Shown: piece by piece, positions 29,123-34,356 of the stretch
How positions within the stretch are numbered: position 1 is the stretch's first letter
Layout: every line of letters starts with the position of its first letter
Origin: an uncultured Ardenticatenaceae bacterium
GTDB lineage: Bacteria > Chloroflexota > Anaerolineae > Promineifilales > Promineifilaceae
Assembly: GCA_964389925.1 (NCBI GenBank)
Contig: CAYMGE010000002.1
Location: 47,729 to 111,728, forward strand
DNA length: 64,000 nucleotides
Direction of reading: 5' to 3'
The notes under the pieces: generated by a model
Database searches by the model: none
What the model saw: only the letters and a program-made list of their open reading frames with translations
What the model was told of the DNA's origin: nothing
Program-made: the position numbers and the translations under genes

Positions 29123-31066
29123 CTACATCAAACGACCAGCCAACCCCAGCCCATACCCCGCCAGCCAAGCCGGCAGCGTGCCGCGCACGGTGCGCGTGAT
29201 GGCGCGTTCGGGATGACGGTAGGCACTCAACGCCATCACATTTGCCATTGTACCCGTCAAGCCCATCACCTGCGCCGGTGTAAACTCGCCATCGGCAAAC
29301 GACAACGCTAGCGGCCCCAACCATGCCCATTTGCGTGCAGGCTTCAGCCCTAATTTCATCGACAAATCTCCCACAATCCGGTTGGCGACTGAAACGTGAT
29401 GCGTATGCCCTTCGGCATGTGGTGCATCAATTTTGTCCAGCAGGTCGCCATTGCGCTGCGCGGCAAGCCACGCGCCTGTCAATGCCGCAATCATGATCGC
29501 TTTTGTCTTTGCGTTTTCAAATTGCAGAGCCGCGACAGTGAGCGGCACAAACCAATCTAAATTCCAACCGCGAAATTCTTCGACACGCTGACGATAGGCT
29601 GCTTCAGACGTAGCGGCCGCCAACGTGATAGCTCCCGCCTCCATATAGGCTTGGCCGATCAACCAATCCAACCAGCCAGTTCTCTGTGCGCTTGTGAGCG
29701 TCGCGGCGGGGGCAAGCGTAGAGGTAGCGAGGGCGATTAGCTTGGGCGAAAATGAGGTCTGCATGGGGGAAACATCCCCGCTGTCATGATGGTGATGCCC
29801 ACCGCCACCGTGCGCATGAATTGTGCTGACACCGTTCAGCGAATGTGTGTGTGACTGTTCATGCTCGCTATCGTCGCCGTGTGAATGTGGGGCAGGGGTG
29901 AGCATTCCCTTCTGCTCGACAAAAGGCAATGCGGCCGCACCAAGCGCAGCAAGTCCGACGCAGGGAACAGCCAACGACTCAGGCATATCGAGCATGTCAT
30001 TGATGGCGGCCGCACCAATCCCTGCTGCCGCAAGCCCCACAAGCGCAAGTTCTTGCGGTTCAACCTCGCTCCGCTTCACTGCTGCCTCATCGACTGACAA
30101 CTCTTGGCTCAATTGGTAGCCAGCATCTTCGAGCGCGTGCTTGAGATAGTGAACGTAGTCAAGCCCTTCAAGTGGCTCTGTTGCGTGCAGGACGCGGAAA
30201 AAGTTGAGGTAGCAGAGCCGTACCCCGCGTTCGTTGGCGAGATGTACCCACGTGTGGGCGGCCGAATGGTAGTCCATCTCCATCATTTCAGCTTGGGTAA
30301 AACGATGGGCGAGAACAACATGTGGCAAACGCCCTTTGGCGATGAACCAGTCGCCGCGCTGATGGCGTGACTCGGCAAAATAGGCCATCGTGAGGCCATA
30401 GCTGTTCATTGCCTTGAGCGTGTCGTTGATCTGCATCTCGTGACCGAGAACCCAATCCCCCTCAAACGCGACCAGCTTGCCGACGTGGCCGGCCGAGTGC
30501 AGCCCGTGGTCTATCAACTCAGGATCAGGCCAATCGTAGCTGGCAGGGCGCGGCACGACAGCGAGGCCAAGCGACTGTAAGTGTTTGCCGAACGCCTCAT
30601 CAAAGCCGAGTCCAAGATCACCATGTGCGAGCAAGCTGCCAGCAAAGACGAGTGTGTTGTCGTCGAGCTGCTGCCCTTTGAGCTGGGGCAGTCGCCAGTT
30701 GAGCGCACTTTCGATGATCGGGATAAATTGGGCTGTTCCGTGCAGATAGATCCATTGCCCCAGTGGAGGGGCTTCTGCAAGCCTATCGGCCGGCACCATC
30801 GGCCGCAACACCCCACGCTGAATCAACCCATTAAGTGTCATTTCAGGCAGTGAAATGTGCGTTGCGCCTTTAGCGACAAGCTGTTTAGCGAGATCGTCAA
30901 ACGTGATGCCAGCCCGCAGCGCGGCGACGGTCACATCGTCAAAATCGACACAAATGCCAACTTTTTTGTTGCGCTTTTCTTGCGCGTGACGTTTTTGCAA
31001 CACTTTTGTGCTGGCGACTGTGCCAACAGTGGTTGCAGCGAGGGAAAGAATACGGGAAAGCTTCAA
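29123..31066 (-). CDS. Large polytopic membrane protein with N-terminal soluble domain and His-rich loop (function unknown)
   Basis: 647 aa. N-terminal anchor, soluble domain of about 330 aa, then about 8 or more hydrophobic helices. Loop HSHGDDSEHEQSHTHSLNGVSTIHAHGGGGHHHHDSGD. From memory it resembles DUF5693-type proteins; unverified. Confidence 0.65.
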   Translation of the reverse strand: MKLSRILSLAATTVGTVASTKVLQKRHAQEKRNKKVGICVDFDDVTVAALRAGITFDDLAKQLVAKGATHISLPEMTLNGLIQRGVLRPMVPADRLAEAPPLGQWIYLHGTAQFIPIIESALNWRLPQLKGQQLDDNTLVFAGSLLAHGDLGLGFDEAFGKHLQSLGLAVVPRPASYDWPDPELIDHGLHSAGHVGKLVAFEGDWVLGHEMQINDTLKAMNSYGLTMAYFAESRHQRGDWFIAKGRLPHVVLAHRFTQAEMMEMDYHSAAHTWVHLANERGVRLCYLNFFRVLHATEPLEGLDYVHYLKHALEDAGYQLSQELSVDEAAVKRSEVEPQELALVGLAAAGIGAAAINDMLDMPESLAVPCVGLAALGAAALPFVEQKGMLTPAPHSHGDDSEHEQSHTHSLNGVSTIHAHGGGGHHHHDSGDVSPMQTSFSPKLIALATSTLAPAATLTSAQRTGWLDWLIGQAYMEAGAITLAAATSEAAYRQRVEEFRGWNLDWFVPLTVAALQFENAKTKAIMIAALTGAWLAAQRNGDLLDKIDAPHAEGHTHHVSVANRIVGDLSMKLGLKPARKWAWLGPLALSFADGEFTPAQVMGLTGTMANVMALSAYRHPERAITRTVRGTLPAWLAGYGLGLAGRLM

Positions 31067-31119
31067 CGAAAACTCCGAAATTCAGCGAGCAGTAAGCCGA
31101 GAAAGCTGCTGTTCACTGT

Positions 31120-32319
31120 TTATTGTTTGCTGTCTATTGCGGTCTTTAACTGCTTGCCAAGCAACATTCGCCCTGTATCGGTTTTGAATACGTCGATGAG
31201 GGTGCGCCAGACGGCGAGCTTGCTGCGGAAATCGGCCGACCATTGAGCCGTTGCCGCACGATCTTCAACACCGCGCTTGATGCGGTCGGTTAATGTTTGG
31301 ACAGGTTTTTGCTGGCTGCGTTTGAGGATGTCAGAAAGACCGAGTGTGGCGATATGGTCACGCAGTTTCGCGGGTGTTGCACCTGCCAAACGCTGCATGA
31401 CATCGGCGGGGACAGGCGCACTCAATAGCTTTTGTGCAAGCGCCAGACCCGCAAGGGCATAGGGCGCAGCGCGGCGGTCGATAGCGCGTTGTGTGAACGT
31501 TTGCCAGTCGATATTACCGGCATGACTGACGCGCATGATGTCGGTGAACTGAACGAGAGACGGTGCGCCTTCGATCAGATGAAAGCAAAAGTGAACGCAG
31601 ACATGCAGAAGCAAATCTTCGCGGCTCAGAACACGGCAAGTGTGGTCGCCAAATTGAGCAATTTCAGCACGTTCACGGATGCCGGGTGTGATGTTGACTT
31701 TAAGACCATACCACGACTCTTCAATCGAGCTATGCGGTTCGATCATTCGGTCATTCTTGGCGGAAAGATAGGGGTTTGGGGTGTTATCAGCCGCCCCCTC
31801 GCGCTTAAATGTCGAAGTATGCTTTGTCACGCCTGCACCTGACTCGGCCGATTTATGCTTCCCGCCATAGCCTATCTCGCTCAACATCTGTTCTGCTTGC
31901 GCCAACTGCGCTGGCTCAAATAGCAGGTCAATGTCGTTCATCGGGCGCAGGGCGGGTTCAGGGTAAACGTGCGCGGCGAGGTGTGCGCCTTTGAGGGCAA
32001 TCGGCCGAATGCCTCGCACTTCGCACGCCGCCAACACGTCGTCTAGCTGCGTGTAAATGGCTGTCGCCCGTTTAGCTTGCGCGGCGTGTGTCACCTTGAG
32101 TTTGGCAAATGCACGTATTGGCAGGTCGAGTTGCCACTCGCTGACGCGATGGTAAAGCTGGGGAGCCAGCCCTAACACAATTGCACGAATAGCGACATCG
32201 TCCCACACGCTATCCTCTGCGAGTCGATCACCCCACTTGGTTTGCCATTGCTCGGCCGACCAATCGGGGCGTAATGCGTCTAAGATAAATTCAGTTGCTT
32301 GTAATGGGGATTTTTTCAT
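31120..32319 (-). CDS. Nucleotidyltransferase, NTP_transf_5 (PF14907-like) family
   Basis: The ORF-track start at 32328 is TTG; ATG at 32319 (MKKSPLQ) has GAGG upstream. Signature IALKGAHLAAHVYPEPALRPMNDIDLLFEP (G...DxD of the pol-beta NTase fold). Confidence 0.75.
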   Translation of the reverse strand: MKKSPLQATEFILDALRPDWSAEQWQTKWGDRLAEDSVWDDVAIRAIVLGLAPQLYHRVSEWQLDLPIRAFAKLKVTHAAQAKRATAIYTQLDDVLAACEVRGIRPIALKGAHLAAHVYPEPALRPMNDIDLLFEPAQLAQAEQMLSEIGYGGKHKSAESGAGVTKHTSTFKREGAADNTPNPYLSAKNDRMIEPHSSIEESWYGLKVNITPGIRERAEIAQFGDHTCRVLSREDLLLHVCVHFCFHLIEGAPSLVQFTDIMRVSHAGNIDWQTFTQRAIDRRAAPYALAGLALAQKLLSAPVPADVMQRLAGATPAKLRDHIATLGLSDILKRSQQKPVQTLTDRIKRGVEDRAATAQWSADFRSKLAVWRTLIDVFKTDTGRMLLGKQLKTAIDSKQ

Positions 32320-32323
32320 TTGC

Positions 32324-32342
32324 CTCAATTGCCAAAGAGAGA
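32324..32342. repeat. Left arm of a perfect 19-bp inverted repeat flanking the twin peptide genes
   Basis: CTCAATTGCCAAAGAGAGA is the exact reverse complement of 32718-32736. It overlaps the SD region of the nucleotidyltransferase gene. Confidence 0.9.
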
Positions 32343-32421
32343 CGCGCTACCAAACGAGTTGATGTTCAGTCTGTGCGGCAACGTTTGTTACCGGATGGCT
32401 TACGCCATCAATAAAATCGGT

Positions 32422-32487
32422 TTAGTGAGAGCTAAAGGTAACTTGAGAAAGTTCTTCGTGCTTTTGGATTTCTGGCTTTACGTACAT
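32422..32487 (-). CDS. Small peptide gene, copy 1 (21 aa: MYVKPEIQKHEELSQVTFSSH)
   Basis: ATG with AGGAG 7 nt upstream, TAA stop. The peptide is identical to copy 2, and all differences between the copies are synonymous. Confidence 0.7.
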   Translation of the reverse strand: MYVKPEIQKHEELSQVTFSSH

Positions 32488-32616
32488 GGGAATGCTCCTA
32501 TGATTAAAGTTGTGATTGTGTTTGATACGTTTGTATCGGGTTGTGGATACTGTTGTATCCATGGTCACGTGTGTGACCGTGCGCTTATGCGCTGAATTAG
32601 AGACGCGATCTTCGGC

Positions 32617-32682
32617 TTAGTGAGAGCTGAAGGTAACTTGAGACAATTCTTCGTGCTTTTGAATTTCTGGTTTTACGTACAT
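32617..32682 (-). CDS. Small peptide gene, copy 2 (21 aa: MYVKPEIQKHEELSQVTFSSH)
   Basis: ATG with AGGAGA 6 nt upstream, TAA stop. Differs from copy 1 at AAA/AAG, ATT/ATC, TTG/CTT, TTC/TTT only. Confidence 0.7.
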   Translation of the reverse strand: MYVKPEIQKHEELSQVTFSSH

Positions 32683-32717
32683 AAGGTTCTCCTAAAAGGA
32701 TAATGTCTGTTAGCGAA

Positions 32718-32736
32718 TCTCTCTTTGGCAATTGAG
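32718..32736. repeat. Right arm of the perfect 19-bp inverted repeat
   Basis: TCTCTCTTTGGCAATTGAG. Lies 36-54 nt upstream of peptide copy 2 and just downstream of the predicted promoter. Confidence 0.9.
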
Positions 32737-32749
32737 CATCGTAACAGGG

Positions 32750-32778
32750 TGTATAACGCAGTTTTTCAGATTTGTCCA
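32750..32778 (-). promoter_or_regulatory. Sigma-70-like promoter candidate for the peptide operon
   Basis: On the minus strand, TGGACA-17 nt-TATACA. This would place the 5' end of the transcript a few nt before the right IR arm. Prediction by eye only. Confidence 0.35.
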
Positions 32779-32818
32779 GCAAATGGCTCGTTTTGGGGGG
32801 GTAGAACGGGGTTGGATG

Positions 32819-32840
32819 ATTGATTTCGGCCGAAATCAAT
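32819..32840. repeat. Perfect 22-bp palindrome ATTGATTTCGGCCGAAATCAAT (extended TCGGCCGA site)
   Basis: Self-complementary over 22 bp. Lies between the rimM stop (32907) and the predicted peptide-operon promoter. No U-run follows on either strand. Confidence 0.8.
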
Positions 32841-32906
32841 GCAATTTACGCCATTCAGCGTATAACTACCTCTCATCACTTCGAGCTGCACCAATGGACA
32901 AACGGC

Positions 32907-33464
32907 TCAAAGCAACCCGTCTGGCAAATGCACAAGCAGTTGCCCATTGGCAATGTCAACCTCTAGTATCACCCCTTCAATATCGGGAATCAAAATCTCG
33001 CCTTGCTCACCCTGCACAATGAAGACATCATTTGCACCCGTTTCGAGGATTTGGCTGACTGTGCCAAGCTGTTCTCCCGTATCGGTCAGCACGTTGATGC
33101 CAATGGCTTGAAATGCGTAGAATTCATCTTCTGCGAGCGGTAGCGCATCCTCTAGCGTGACAAAAAGCCAGTGTTGACGTAGTGTCCCAGCCTCTTCGCG
33201 CCCGTTGATTTCGGCAAATTTGACGAGGGCTTCTTCTTTGTTGAAGCGCACGTTTTCAACGGTCAGGGGGCGTGGGTTAGCGTCATTCGGCCGACGCGAC
33301 ACATATACGCGCTCTAAATCAAAGAAACGCGCAGGTTCATCGCTTTCAACGGAAACCTTTAGTTCCCCCATCACGCCGTGCGGCTTACGAATAAACCCTA
33401 TAATCAAAAAACGAGGTTCCGCAGAACCTCGCTCCCTTTCTCTTGGTGAAAGATTGTTTGTCAT
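32907..33464 (-). CDS. rimM: 16S rRNA processing protein RimM
   Basis: 185 aa. IGFIRKPHGVMGELKV N-terminal barrel block plus a PRC-barrel C-terminus. Conserved position after rpsP and the KH gene. Confidence 0.9.
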   Translation of the reverse strand: MTNNLSPRERERGSAEPRFLIIGFIRKPHGVMGELKVSVESDEPARFFDLERVYVSRRPNDANPRPLTVENVRFNKEEALVKFAEINGREEAGTLRQHWLFVTLEDALPLAEDEFYAFQAIGINVLTDTGEQLGTVSQILETGANDVFIVQGEQGEILIPDIEGVILEVDIANGQLLVHLPDGLL

Positions 33465-33691
33465 AATACTTCGAGCGTGACCCGTTTGCCCTCTTTTGCG
33501 CCAAGCGACTGAACAATCGTGCGGAGGGCATTGATGACACGTCCTTTGCGGCCGATGACGCGCCCTGTATCCTCATCTGCAACACGCACCTCAACGATGA
33601 TAGATGACTCACCTGCCATCTCTGTCACTTCGACCATATCTGGTTCATCAACCAGCGATTTCACCATATATTCGACTAAATCTTTAAACAT
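33461..33691 (-). CDS. KH-domain RNA-binding protein (UPF0109 / YlqC-like)
   Basis: Start set at the ATG at 33691 (MFKDLVEYMV) with GAGGGA upstream. GXXG motif in VIGRKGRVINALRTIV. Overlaps the rimM start by 4 nt. Confidence 0.85.
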   Translation of the reverse strand: MFKDLVEYMVKSLVDEPDMVEVTEMAGESSIIVEVRVADEDTGRVIGRKGRVINALRTIVQSLGAKEGKRVTLEVL

Positions 33692-33843
33692 AATTCCCTC
33701 AAGGTGTTTACCCAAAATAGTTGTACGTTATTCTCATCTTCACAGTGCTTATGATTGTATGCCCTAATGAAGAAATCGCAACGCGCAGACTGCCAAAATG
33801 GCTATTTATATCTCAAAACAGCCATTTTGATAACTATTTGAAA

Positions 33844-34356
33844 CTATGCTTCGCTCGTTTCGTCGGTCTCATCGTTTCCAGTAACAGCGTCAACAAGATT
33901 GCTGACCACGTTAGAAACCACCTCAACTGCGTCTGACGCAGCTTCGCTAACAGCTTCACTCACGGCCGCGGCCGCATCACTCACAGTCTCTTGCACAGAC
34001 TCAATGACGCTGCTTGCAGTCTCCTCAGCCTCTTCAACGATGGGCGGCCATGGCGTGCCTTCAAACTCAGCGACCAACTTGCCCATTTCTTCACCGGCAC
34101 GGAAGCGTGCAAGGCGATCTAGTGTGCCTTGTTTTTCCAAGAGACGACGAACCGCATCTGATGGCTGTGCGCCAACGCTCAACCAGTGCAAGGCACGTCC
34201 TTCTTCAACTTTATAAACAATGGGATCAACCATTGGATTATAATAGCCAATCTGCTCAACAAAACGACCATCGCGCTTAGAGCTACTTTCTGCTACCACA
34301 ACGCGATAACTTGGTTGCCGTTTCTTCCCACGGCGTGCTAAACGAATACGTAACAT
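33844..34356 (-). CDS. rpsP: 30S ribosomal protein S16 with a C-terminal extension of about 85 aa
   Basis: Start set at the ATG at 34356 (MLRIRLARRGKKRQPSYRVVVAES) with GGAGAA upstream. The core S16 is followed by an Ala/Val/Ser/Glu-rich tail. Confidence 0.9.
   Translation of the reverse strand: MLRIRLARRGKKRQPSYRVVVAESSSKRDGRFVEQIGYYNPMVDPIVYKVEEGRALHWLSVGAQPSDAVRRLLEKQGTLDRLARFRAGEEMGKLVAEFEGTPWPPIVEEAEETASSVIESVQETVSDAAAAVSEAVSEAASDAVEVVSNVVSNLVDAVTGNDETDETSEA

Follow-up and report, generated by a model that had tools for sequence, protein, structure and literature searches.

A conserved short-peptide gene family with a lasso-type leader motif accompanies a PF14907 nucleotidyltransferase in Chloroflexota

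We investigated a 64,000-nt stretch of DNA (the window) from an uncultured Ardenticatenaceae bacterium of the phylum Chloroflexota (GenBank assembly GCA_964389925.1, contig CAYMGE010000002.1, positions 47,729 to 111,728 of the forward strand), in which an earlier reading of the letters alone, here called the original prediction, had pointed to two tandem genes for one short peptide. Two 66-nt open reading frames (ORFs) on the minus strand, between positions 32,422 and 32,682, encode the same 21-residue peptide and lie upstream of genes for a PF14907 nucleotidyltransferase and a DUF5693 membrane protein. Here, we describe these ORFs as genes under purifying selection, linked to the same enzymes in related genomes and bracketed by a covarying RNA helix. 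The peptide is probably a precursor or scaffold akin to those of RiPPs, peptides that are made by the ribosome and modified after translation.

The peptide genes and their conservation

The two genes and their ribosome-binding sites are as follows.

32617..32682, minus strand: peptide gene copy 1, ATG to TAA, 21 aa, MYVKPEIQKHEELSQVTFSSH
32693-32688, minus strand: Shine-Dalgarno sequence AGGAGA of copy 1, 5 nt before the ATG (6 nt from AGGAG)
32422..32487, minus strand: peptide gene copy 2, ATG to TAA, protein identical to that of copy 1, MYVKPEIQKHEELSQVTFSSH
32499-32495, minus strand: Shine-Dalgarno sequence AGGAG of copy 2, 7 nt before the ATG

Re-reading both frames from ATG to TAA returned the single translation given in the original prediction, with a canonical Shine-Dalgarno sequence at each ORF as it had stated; from these sites and the start codons we infer that both are translated. 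The copies differ at 5 positions in 4 codons (AAA/AAG, ATT/ATC, TTG/CTT, and TTC/TTT), and a recount found every difference to be synonymous, again as claimed. When 5 random substitutions were placed in the ORF by simulation, the chance of 5/5 being synonymous was P = 1.6e-4 under uniform substitution and P ~1e-3 with the observed transition/transversion mix kept. The DNA repeat carrying both ORFs covers 71 nt at 92% identity with a spacing of 195 nt, and the flanks are indeed more diverged than the ORFs, the 60-nt flanks of the two copies being identical at 21/60 and 16/60 positions in ungapped comparison, which is the random level. An ORF list with a 60-aa cutoff misses both genes, as had been remarked, and shows only ORFs in another frame or on the other strand (32320..32595, plus; 32597..32839, minus). 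Similarly, a gene call in an independent assembly of the same organism (L132:7404-7604) is a 66-aa antisense ORF over the peptide region, indicating that real peptide genes get masked in annotation. A scan for promoter and terminator consensus sequences found nothing on the minus strand, and Chloroflexota promoters may not fit the consensus.

A search seeded with the nucleotidyltransferase profile yielded 50 loci from species-representative genomes, 49 of which were from Chloroflexota (Anaerolineae, Promineifilaceae, Ardenticatenaceae, Leptofilum, and Caldilineaceae). In all 45 loci with at least 375 nt of upstream DNA, the enzyme is preceded by one or two small same-strand ORFs, which lie 150–500 nt upstream of the enzyme match. 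With the window included, we counted 67 peptide copies in 46 loci, among which 66 begin with ATG, nearly all follow a strong Shine-Dalgarno sequence, and 21 loci hold two copies. The peptides are 21–23 aa long, with the consensus M(KK)YxKPx[ILVM]xKHxxLxx[VI]TFSSH* (the asterisk being the stop). The lone locus outside Chloroflexota (L049, CBDAOD010000002.1) is from a bin labelled Vicinamibacterales (Acidobacteriota), with a peptide ending in AFSSH, and could be a case of horizontal transfer or a binning error.

In addition, metagenome contigs were scanned with a degenerate DNA pattern for the C-terminal half of the peptide only (K-H-x2-L-x2-[VI]-T-F-S-x-H-stop). The scan returned 81 stretches, 80 of which were intact peptide ORFs of the same family, and a PF14907 gene adjoins nearly all 80 where the contig is long enough. 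PF14907 was not seen at seven true hits: five are cut by the contig end, and the others are L100, with a layout of the L109 type, and L119, where DUF5693 follows the peptide directly and the fetched stretch has no nucleotidyltransferase match. The original prediction had named in-frame conservation beside PF14907-type genes as its check, and both searches bear this out (45/45 genome loci and 80/81 metagenome pattern matches). Gene order varies, being nucleotidyltransferase, peptide, and DUF5693 in L054, L059, L087, and L095, and peptide, B12 radical-SAM enzyme, nucleotidyltransferase, and GT2 glycosyltransferase in L109 and L075. This indicates that the link between peptide and enzyme is independent of one fixed arrangement.

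The codon statistics of the family are those of protein-coding genes. Across 63 distinct nucleotide versions, the entropy at codon positions 1, 2, and 3 was 0.44, 0.32, and 1.08, respectively, and the pooled ratio of non-synonymous to synonymous polymorphism (pN/pS) was 0.24. The invariant Leu is encoded by six codons drawn from both Leu codon families, Ser20 by AGC, TCT, and TCC, and Pro and Thr by four codons each. Between the two copies of the same locus (21 two-copy loci), the differences amount to 86 nt in synonymous versus 10 nt in non-synonymous codons. The entropy profile and these paralog differences agree with the earlier claim that selection acts on the peptide rather than on the DNA or RNA; both ORFs are real genes under purifying selection. 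Small ORFs with selection at the protein level, here with translation predicted from the ribosome-binding sites, are what is generally sought in RiPP precursors.

The leader motif

In lasso precursors, the motif YxxPxL spans positions −17 to −12 and Thr stands at −2 (PMC10368454). Y2, P5, I7, and T17 of the window peptide have exactly this spacing (−17, −14, −12, and −2), which leaves SSH as the "core". The leader motif of the linear polyphosphorylated peptide (LPP) system, YxxPxVLxHQxIxFETxxS (Popov et al. 2026, PMC13381572), is matched at equal offsets at 7 of its 11 specified positions (Y, P, V/I, H, I/L, T, and S) and mismatched at L, Q, F, and E. In LPP precursors, cleavage occurs C-terminal to the Thr, and an HprK-like kinase polyphosphorylates Ser3 (PMC13381572); Ser20 of our peptide aligns with this modified Ser3. 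Ser19 is strictly invariant, and Ser20 is replaced by Ala or Met in a few loci, apart from which the SSH end is kept in the 67 genome and 80 metagenome copies.

Pfam and NCBIfam scans of the peptide gave no family reaching its cutoff; sub-threshold NCBIfam matches were to lasso_cyano (E = 0.024) and lasso_leader_L3 (E = 0.041; 14 bits vs a cutoff of 19). The peptide ORFs were absent from a collection of ~15 billion proteins, the one exception being a "hypothetical protein" of 33 aa that carries an N-terminal extension. Full-text literature searches (PF14907/DUF5693, TFSSH, HprK-related kinase, and Chloroflexi lasso/HprK) returned no description of this peptide family. The original prediction had recognized no named family in the peptide, consistent with these scans and searches. 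It had also read the N-terminus as a Y-x-x-P-x-(I/L) block of the type bound by RiPP recognition elements (RREs), and this is upheld by the lasso register, the weak lasso-leader matches, and the occurrence of PqqD/RRE and lasso-B2 genes in some related loci.

Its broader likening of the peptide to RiPP leaders and PqqA-like scaffolds stood in part. The lasso-type leader register supports the former, and PqqA serves only as an analogy: E-x-x-x-Y, the core motif of PqqA, is absent, and neither pqqB-E genes nor a radical-SAM PqqE-like gene was found nearby. Nor does the peptide qualify as a lasso precursor, in which the core runs to some 14 or more residues, opens with a ring-forming residue, and has Asp/Glu at positions 7–9; only SSH lies past the T-x junction here.

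The nucleotidyltransferase, DUF5693, and other window genes

Downstream of the peptide genes lie the two genes listed below.

31120..32319, minus strand: PF14907 (NTP_transf_5) nucleotidyltransferase, 399 aa, ATG at 32319; Pfam E = 4.8e-46
29123..31066, minus strand: DUF5693 membrane protein, 647 aa; Pfam E = 3.7e-35

The nucleotidyltransferase is 100% identical to a 399-aa database protein (P0001). Its DxD motif comprises D132 and D134 (numbering begins at the TTG start of a 402-aa ORF at 32328), and both residues are invariant among homologs. In its AlphaFold2 model (predicted local distance difference test, pLDDT, 90.6), the N- and C-terminal extensions are helical, and the solved folds closest to the model are TM1012 and the aminoglycoside nucleotidyltransferase ANT(2'')-Ia; a PDB sequence search with the enzyme profile gave no matches. 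PsmN, an NTP transferase of the pseudomycoidin lasso cluster that is needed for hexose addition to phospho-Ser, has a DxD motif at D134/D136, both residues being essential, and its best reported structural models are also TM1012 and ANT(2'')-Ia (PMC6993621); the comparison with PsmN is one of role, DxD motif, and fold models, not of Pfam family. LppN is listed as NTP_transf_5 in the co-occurrence table of the LPP study (Supplementary Data 2, PMC13381572). Many related loci carry two or three PF14907 paralogs (L020:4169-5503, L014:10051-11265, and others), which suggests several successive transfers; one such paralog is transcribed divergently beside a polytopic flippase-like protein.

DUF5693 lies beside the nucleotidyltransferase in 45 of 49 genome loci. 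Its model (pLDDT 88.5) starts with a transmembrane helix at the N-terminus, continues with a TIM-barrel-like domain, and ends in a C-terminal domain that is polytopic and helical and includes a disordered His-rich loop. The loop (HSHGDDSEHEQSHTHS...HHHH) is accompanied by a conserved HAEGHTHH motif (residues ~400-435, 547-557), and two homologs have a precomputed match to the ZIP zinc-transporter family (PF02535); the loop and these matches hint at metal binding.

The order on the same strand downstream is nucleotidyltransferase, DUF5693, and an RlmD-like methyltransferase, and upstream of the peptides are rimM, a KH-domain protein gene, rpsP, and ffh. Using tblastn with the accessory genes of related loci, we found no kinase, FGE-like, glycosyltransferase, radical-SAM, PqqD, or B2 counterpart in the 64-kb window. 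The window holds the minimal trio only: peptide, nucleotidyltransferase, and DUF5693.

Accessory genes in related loci

The ORFs of the 50 genome loci were clustered for counts of accessory genes. An HprK-related kinase-like protein occurs in 25 of the 50 loci (TIGR04352, E = 2e-9 over the P-loop region), for which a PDB sequence search gave no matches. Subsets of loci hold GT2 and GT-C (PMT_2-like) glycosyltransferases, a flippase-like polytopic protein, an ABC ATPase, and a B12 radical-SAM enzyme, the last lying immediately downstream of the peptide gene in L109 and L075. A PqqD protein, with lasso PqqD chaperones as its best NCBIfam matches, is present in L033, L083, and L119, adjoined in each by a transglutaminase-like protein, which in L083 passes the lasso_biosyn_B2 cutoff (44.3 vs 33 bits); in all three, the PqqD/B2 pair sits divergently beside the kinase gene. 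Partial B1/B2 copies occur in L005, L099, and L103. Conserved adjacency to tailoring enzymes, a general mark of RiPP precursors, is seen here with PF14907 at the informative loci and with the kinase, B12 radical-SAM, and B1/B2 genes in subsets.

A lasso cyclase (Asn-synthetase-like C protein) was found neither among the scanned window neighbors nor in the conserved clusters of the 50 loci, the unclustered ORFs of which were not all scanned; none follows B2 in L119 or L033. A SipW-like signal peptidase and an MsbA-like exporter were likewise absent from the ORFs scanned. The fullest loci are L083:472-5543, L119:1398-5292, and L033:3214-5738. L083 additionally holds a TauE-type exporter along with B12 radical-SAM and FGE-like proteins, L033 an endonuclease/exonuclease/phosphatase-family protein, and L119 a cupredoxin-like secreted protein; no lasso cyclase was seen in any of the three.

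An FGE-sulfatase/EgtB-like protein occurs in 24 of the 50 genome loci (cluster c3; e.g., L013:10318-11154 and L083:3901-4785), often as the next gene after DUF5693. Its best NCBIfam matches include GldK, SenA, EgtB, and OvoA; SenA, EgtB, and OvoA modify histidine imidazoles, and the peptide always ends in His. That this neighbor acts on the C-terminal His is speculative, as the matches are of a generic fold and the gene is absent from the window.

An RNA helix bracketing the peptide genes

The peptide genes lie between two complementary arms.

32705..32736, minus strand: 5' arm of the helix, whose end lies 22 nt ahead of the first ATG and 11 nt ahead of the Shine-Dalgarno sequence of that gene
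32324..32355, minus strand: 3' arm of the helix, ending ...TTGAG 4 nt before the nucleotidyltransferase ATG (32319)

In the window, the arms form an inverted repeat (I1) of 32 nt with 88% complementarity, and the 3' arm overlaps the likely GAGG ribosome-binding site of the nucleotidyltransferase. In 110 of 121 loci, complementary arms enclose one or both peptide cistrons, with a helix of 25–30 bp. The 3' arm adjoins the start of the next gene or overlaps with it, the start codon lying a median of 14 nt past the arm. The inner helix is conserved (...GGAGGCGCGCUAC / GUAGCGCGCCUCC...); the outer helix is fully different between lineages yet still complementary.

Covariation was assessed in an anchored alignment of 92 distinct sequences. 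Standard pairs filled 87.5% of cells vs 40–49% with partners slid by 1–3 columns; the register of each sequence was its own best ungapped helix, which inflates the percentage paired but not the pair types per column. Changes on both sides were seen at 27 of 29 pairs, and the covariation score was 0.565 vs 0.13–0.19 for slid and 0.235 for shuffled partners (0/500 shuffles as high). On the sense strand, arm mismatches comprised 121 G.U vs 25 A.C under symmetric scoring, an excess that favors an RNA helix over a repeat acting at the DNA level. A DNA-level element, such as transposon ends or paired protein-binding sites, was ruled out by this G.U excess and the covarying outer helix. In the window segment 32745->32310, the helix closes the minimum-free-energy fold (−128.3 kcal/mol, z-score −8.2).

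An Rfam scan of positions 31000–34000 gave no match to the helix. Its sole match was to a group I intron model at 33652–33842 (minus strand), between rpsP and the KH-protein gene, with 17.4 bits vs a gathering threshold of 50 (E = 0.27), which is most likely due to chance. Two short GC-rich hairpins without a U tract, GCGCAUAAGCGC and GGUCACACACGUGACC, follow the first peptide gene (window 32561–32592), and a further hairpin, GAUGGCGUAAGCCAUC, follows the second; these hairpins may stabilize the mRNA.

Such a geometry, with two to three helical turns on the flanks of a cistron, is that of classic RNase III substrates. Plausibly, the helix serves RNase III-type processing, stabilizes the peptide mRNA, or occludes the ribosome-binding site downstream.

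Interpretation and alternatives

We favor, as probable though far from certain, the reading that the ORFs encode a RiPP-like precursor or scaffold, in which a lasso/LPP-type leader presents the (F)SSH end to the PF14907 enzyme, with DUF5693 acting downstream at the membrane. Residues 2 to 17 or 18 would form the leader (Y2, P5, I7, H10, L13, and T17), of the kind bound by PqqD-type recognition elements, leaving the C-terminal (F)SSH as the only core. The nucleotidyltransferase would modify a C-terminal serine, Ser19 or Ser20, adding a phosphodiester-linked group, either nucleotidyl or sugar-phosphate, and in genomes that carry the HprK-like kinase, this kinase may phosphorylate the serine first. 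DUF5693 would then process, export, or hand on the product. In the fuller loci, the lasso-type B1/B2 pair might take off the leader, and the B12 radical-SAM, FGE-like, and glycosyltransferase enzymes could add later steps. The bracketing helix probably governs how strongly the peptide is expressed relative to the enzyme, by one of the routes named above. Tandem copies of the peptide gene are typical of RiPP precursors. The invariance of the core across families suggests a small conserved product, such as a cofactor, a signal, or an envelope primer, rather than a diversifying antibiotic; in this respect the core resembles cofactor-type RiPPs (pyrroloquinoline quinone, PQQ, and mycofactocin) more than antibiotic RiPPs.

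Several observations weigh against this reading. The 64-kb window lacks a recognition element, a kinase, and a leader peptidase, and most related loci have no B1/B2 within 6 kb. An RRE fused to the nucleotidyltransferase was sought in its model, where the extensions are all-helical with no RRE-like beta-sheet. Even in the studied LPP system, deletion of LppN had no visible effect (PMC13381572). A PDB fold search with the DUF5693 model returned only generic TIM barrels (E >= 0.007). Furthermore, with a core of 3–4 residues and no leader peptidase nearby, a peptide that is never cleaved fits equally well.

A bolder form of the precursor reading is tentative and, in our judgment, rather doubtful. 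It holds that SSH on its lasso-type leader is a scaffold for a conserved small product or a primer, to the serine of which PF14907 would attach a nucleotide or sugar-phosphate, whereupon the glycosyltransferases and DUF5693 would build or transfer an envelope glycoconjugate. The system would then be a peptide-primed glycopolymer or cofactor pathway, derived from lasso machinery and widespread in Chloroflexota, with a precursor mRNA excised or stabilized by the helix.

Alternatively, the peptide may be an unmodified small protein, namely a subunit, chaperone, or regulator of the nucleotidyltransferase/DUF5693 machinery that, for example, docks on the enzyme. The smallest conserved module consists of the peptide, the nucleotidyltransferase, and DUF5693 alone, most loci are without a recognition element or peptidase, and conservation is extreme along the whole length of the peptide, as would be expected of a binding partner. 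Such a role is nevertheless unlikely: the leader motif stands in the exact register of known substrate peptides, the module is joined elsewhere, in other genomes, by genes for the kinase, B1/B2, and radical-SAM enzymes, and Ser-Ser is kept at the position phosphorylated by related kinases. Tandem copies with strong ribosome-binding sites also suggest stoichiometric consumption.

We consider it quite improbable that the ORFs act as arrest- or attenuation-type regulatory upstream ORFs that, with the helix, control the downstream nucleotidyltransferase. Their position upstream of the enzyme gene, the 3' arm over the ribosome-binding site of the enzyme in the window, and the short distance from arm to next start across loci are in line with such control, and arrest peptides such as TnaC come to mind in view of the invariant residues that immediately precede the stop codon. 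However, both arms lie outside the ORFs, so translation would not open the helix, and there are two independent copies. The peptide also comes after the nucleotidyltransferase gene in L054, L059, L087, and L095, directly before DUF5693 in L119, and ahead of the radical-SAM gene in L109 and L075, and its conserved N-terminal YxxP would be needless in an arrest peptide.

Finally, that the repeat is a duplicated non-coding RNA or DNA element with accidental ORFs is scarcely credible: although the ORFs are very short and structured RNA is present at the locus, the codon statistics (third-position periodicity, and different codon families for invariant Leu and Ser) exclude a non-coding repeat as their source, start, stop, and nearly all Shine-Dalgarno sequences are kept in 67 copies, and the helix arms, without an Rfam match, lie outside the ORFs.

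Relation to known systems and significance

The peptide family is related to the phosphorylated lasso peptides and the LPP system. With LPP (PMC13381572), it shares Y-x-x-P-x-[VI] and, counting from the Tyr, a His (+8), a hydrophobic residue (+11), a Thr (+15), and a Ser (+18), as well as an NTP_transf_5 protein in the cluster and the lack of a lasso cyclase. Also common to both are an HprK-like kinase and a discrete PqqD element, here in part of the related loci only, as is the association with glycosyltransferase/polysaccharide genes; the recurrent glycosyltransferase and GT-C neighbors echo the polysaccharide-locus context noted for LPP. LPP precursors, however, have 35–200 aa and variable C-termini, whereas ours have 21–23 aa and a fixed (F)SSH end. 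LPP clusters include a SipW-like signal peptidase and an MsbA-like exporter, whereas the peptidase here, where present, is the lasso-type B2. DUF5693 is particular to the present system, of which the window copy lacks the kinase and recognition element. According to the authors of the LPP study, neither LPP nor paeninodins occur outside Bacillota (PMC13381572), whereas the present system is found in Chloroflexota.

The phosphorylated lasso peptides (paeninodin, pseudomycoidin, and the Bsf type) have the same leader register, Y(−17), P(−14), L/I(−12), and T(−2), and the same accessory enzymes, namely HprK-like kinase, N-type nucleotidyltransferase, and B1/B2; the related kinases phosphorylate Ser at core position 3 or at the C-terminus. 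Unlike these peptides, ours has a 3-residue core, too short for a macrolactam ring plus tail and invariant rather than variable, and there is no cyclase in the window or after B2 in L119 and L033.

PqqA and the mycofactocin precursor MftA are short precursors with a PqqD-type leader motif, a C-terminal core invariant across taxa, and sometimes tandem copies, all of which apply to the present peptide. It differs in having neither the E-x3-Y of PqqA nor the C-terminal Val-Tyr of MftA, and its core module has no radical-SAM/SPASM enzyme, with pqq and mft genes absent. The family is set apart from the phosphorylated lasso and LPP systems by its invariant core of 3–4 residues, an obligatory DUF5693 partner, a recognition element and peptidase that are usually not nearby, the bracketing RNA helix, and its phylum.

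The system may be a pared-down natural counterpart of phospho-lasso/LPP tailoring, reduced to a leader with 3–4 core residues plus a single nucleotidyltransferase and a single membrane protein. With a substrate of 21 residues whose target site does not vary, the reaction of the "N" nucleotidyltransferases (PF14907) would be open to direct in vitro testing. The locus adds a new covarying mRNA structure, a helix bracketing a precursor-peptide cistron, and shows that gene callers overlook a peptide family conserved over whole Chloroflexota families. Filamentous Chloroflexota are abundant in activated sludge and sediments, and the invariant core hints at a physiological product in these bacteria, such as a cofactor, a signal, or an envelope component.

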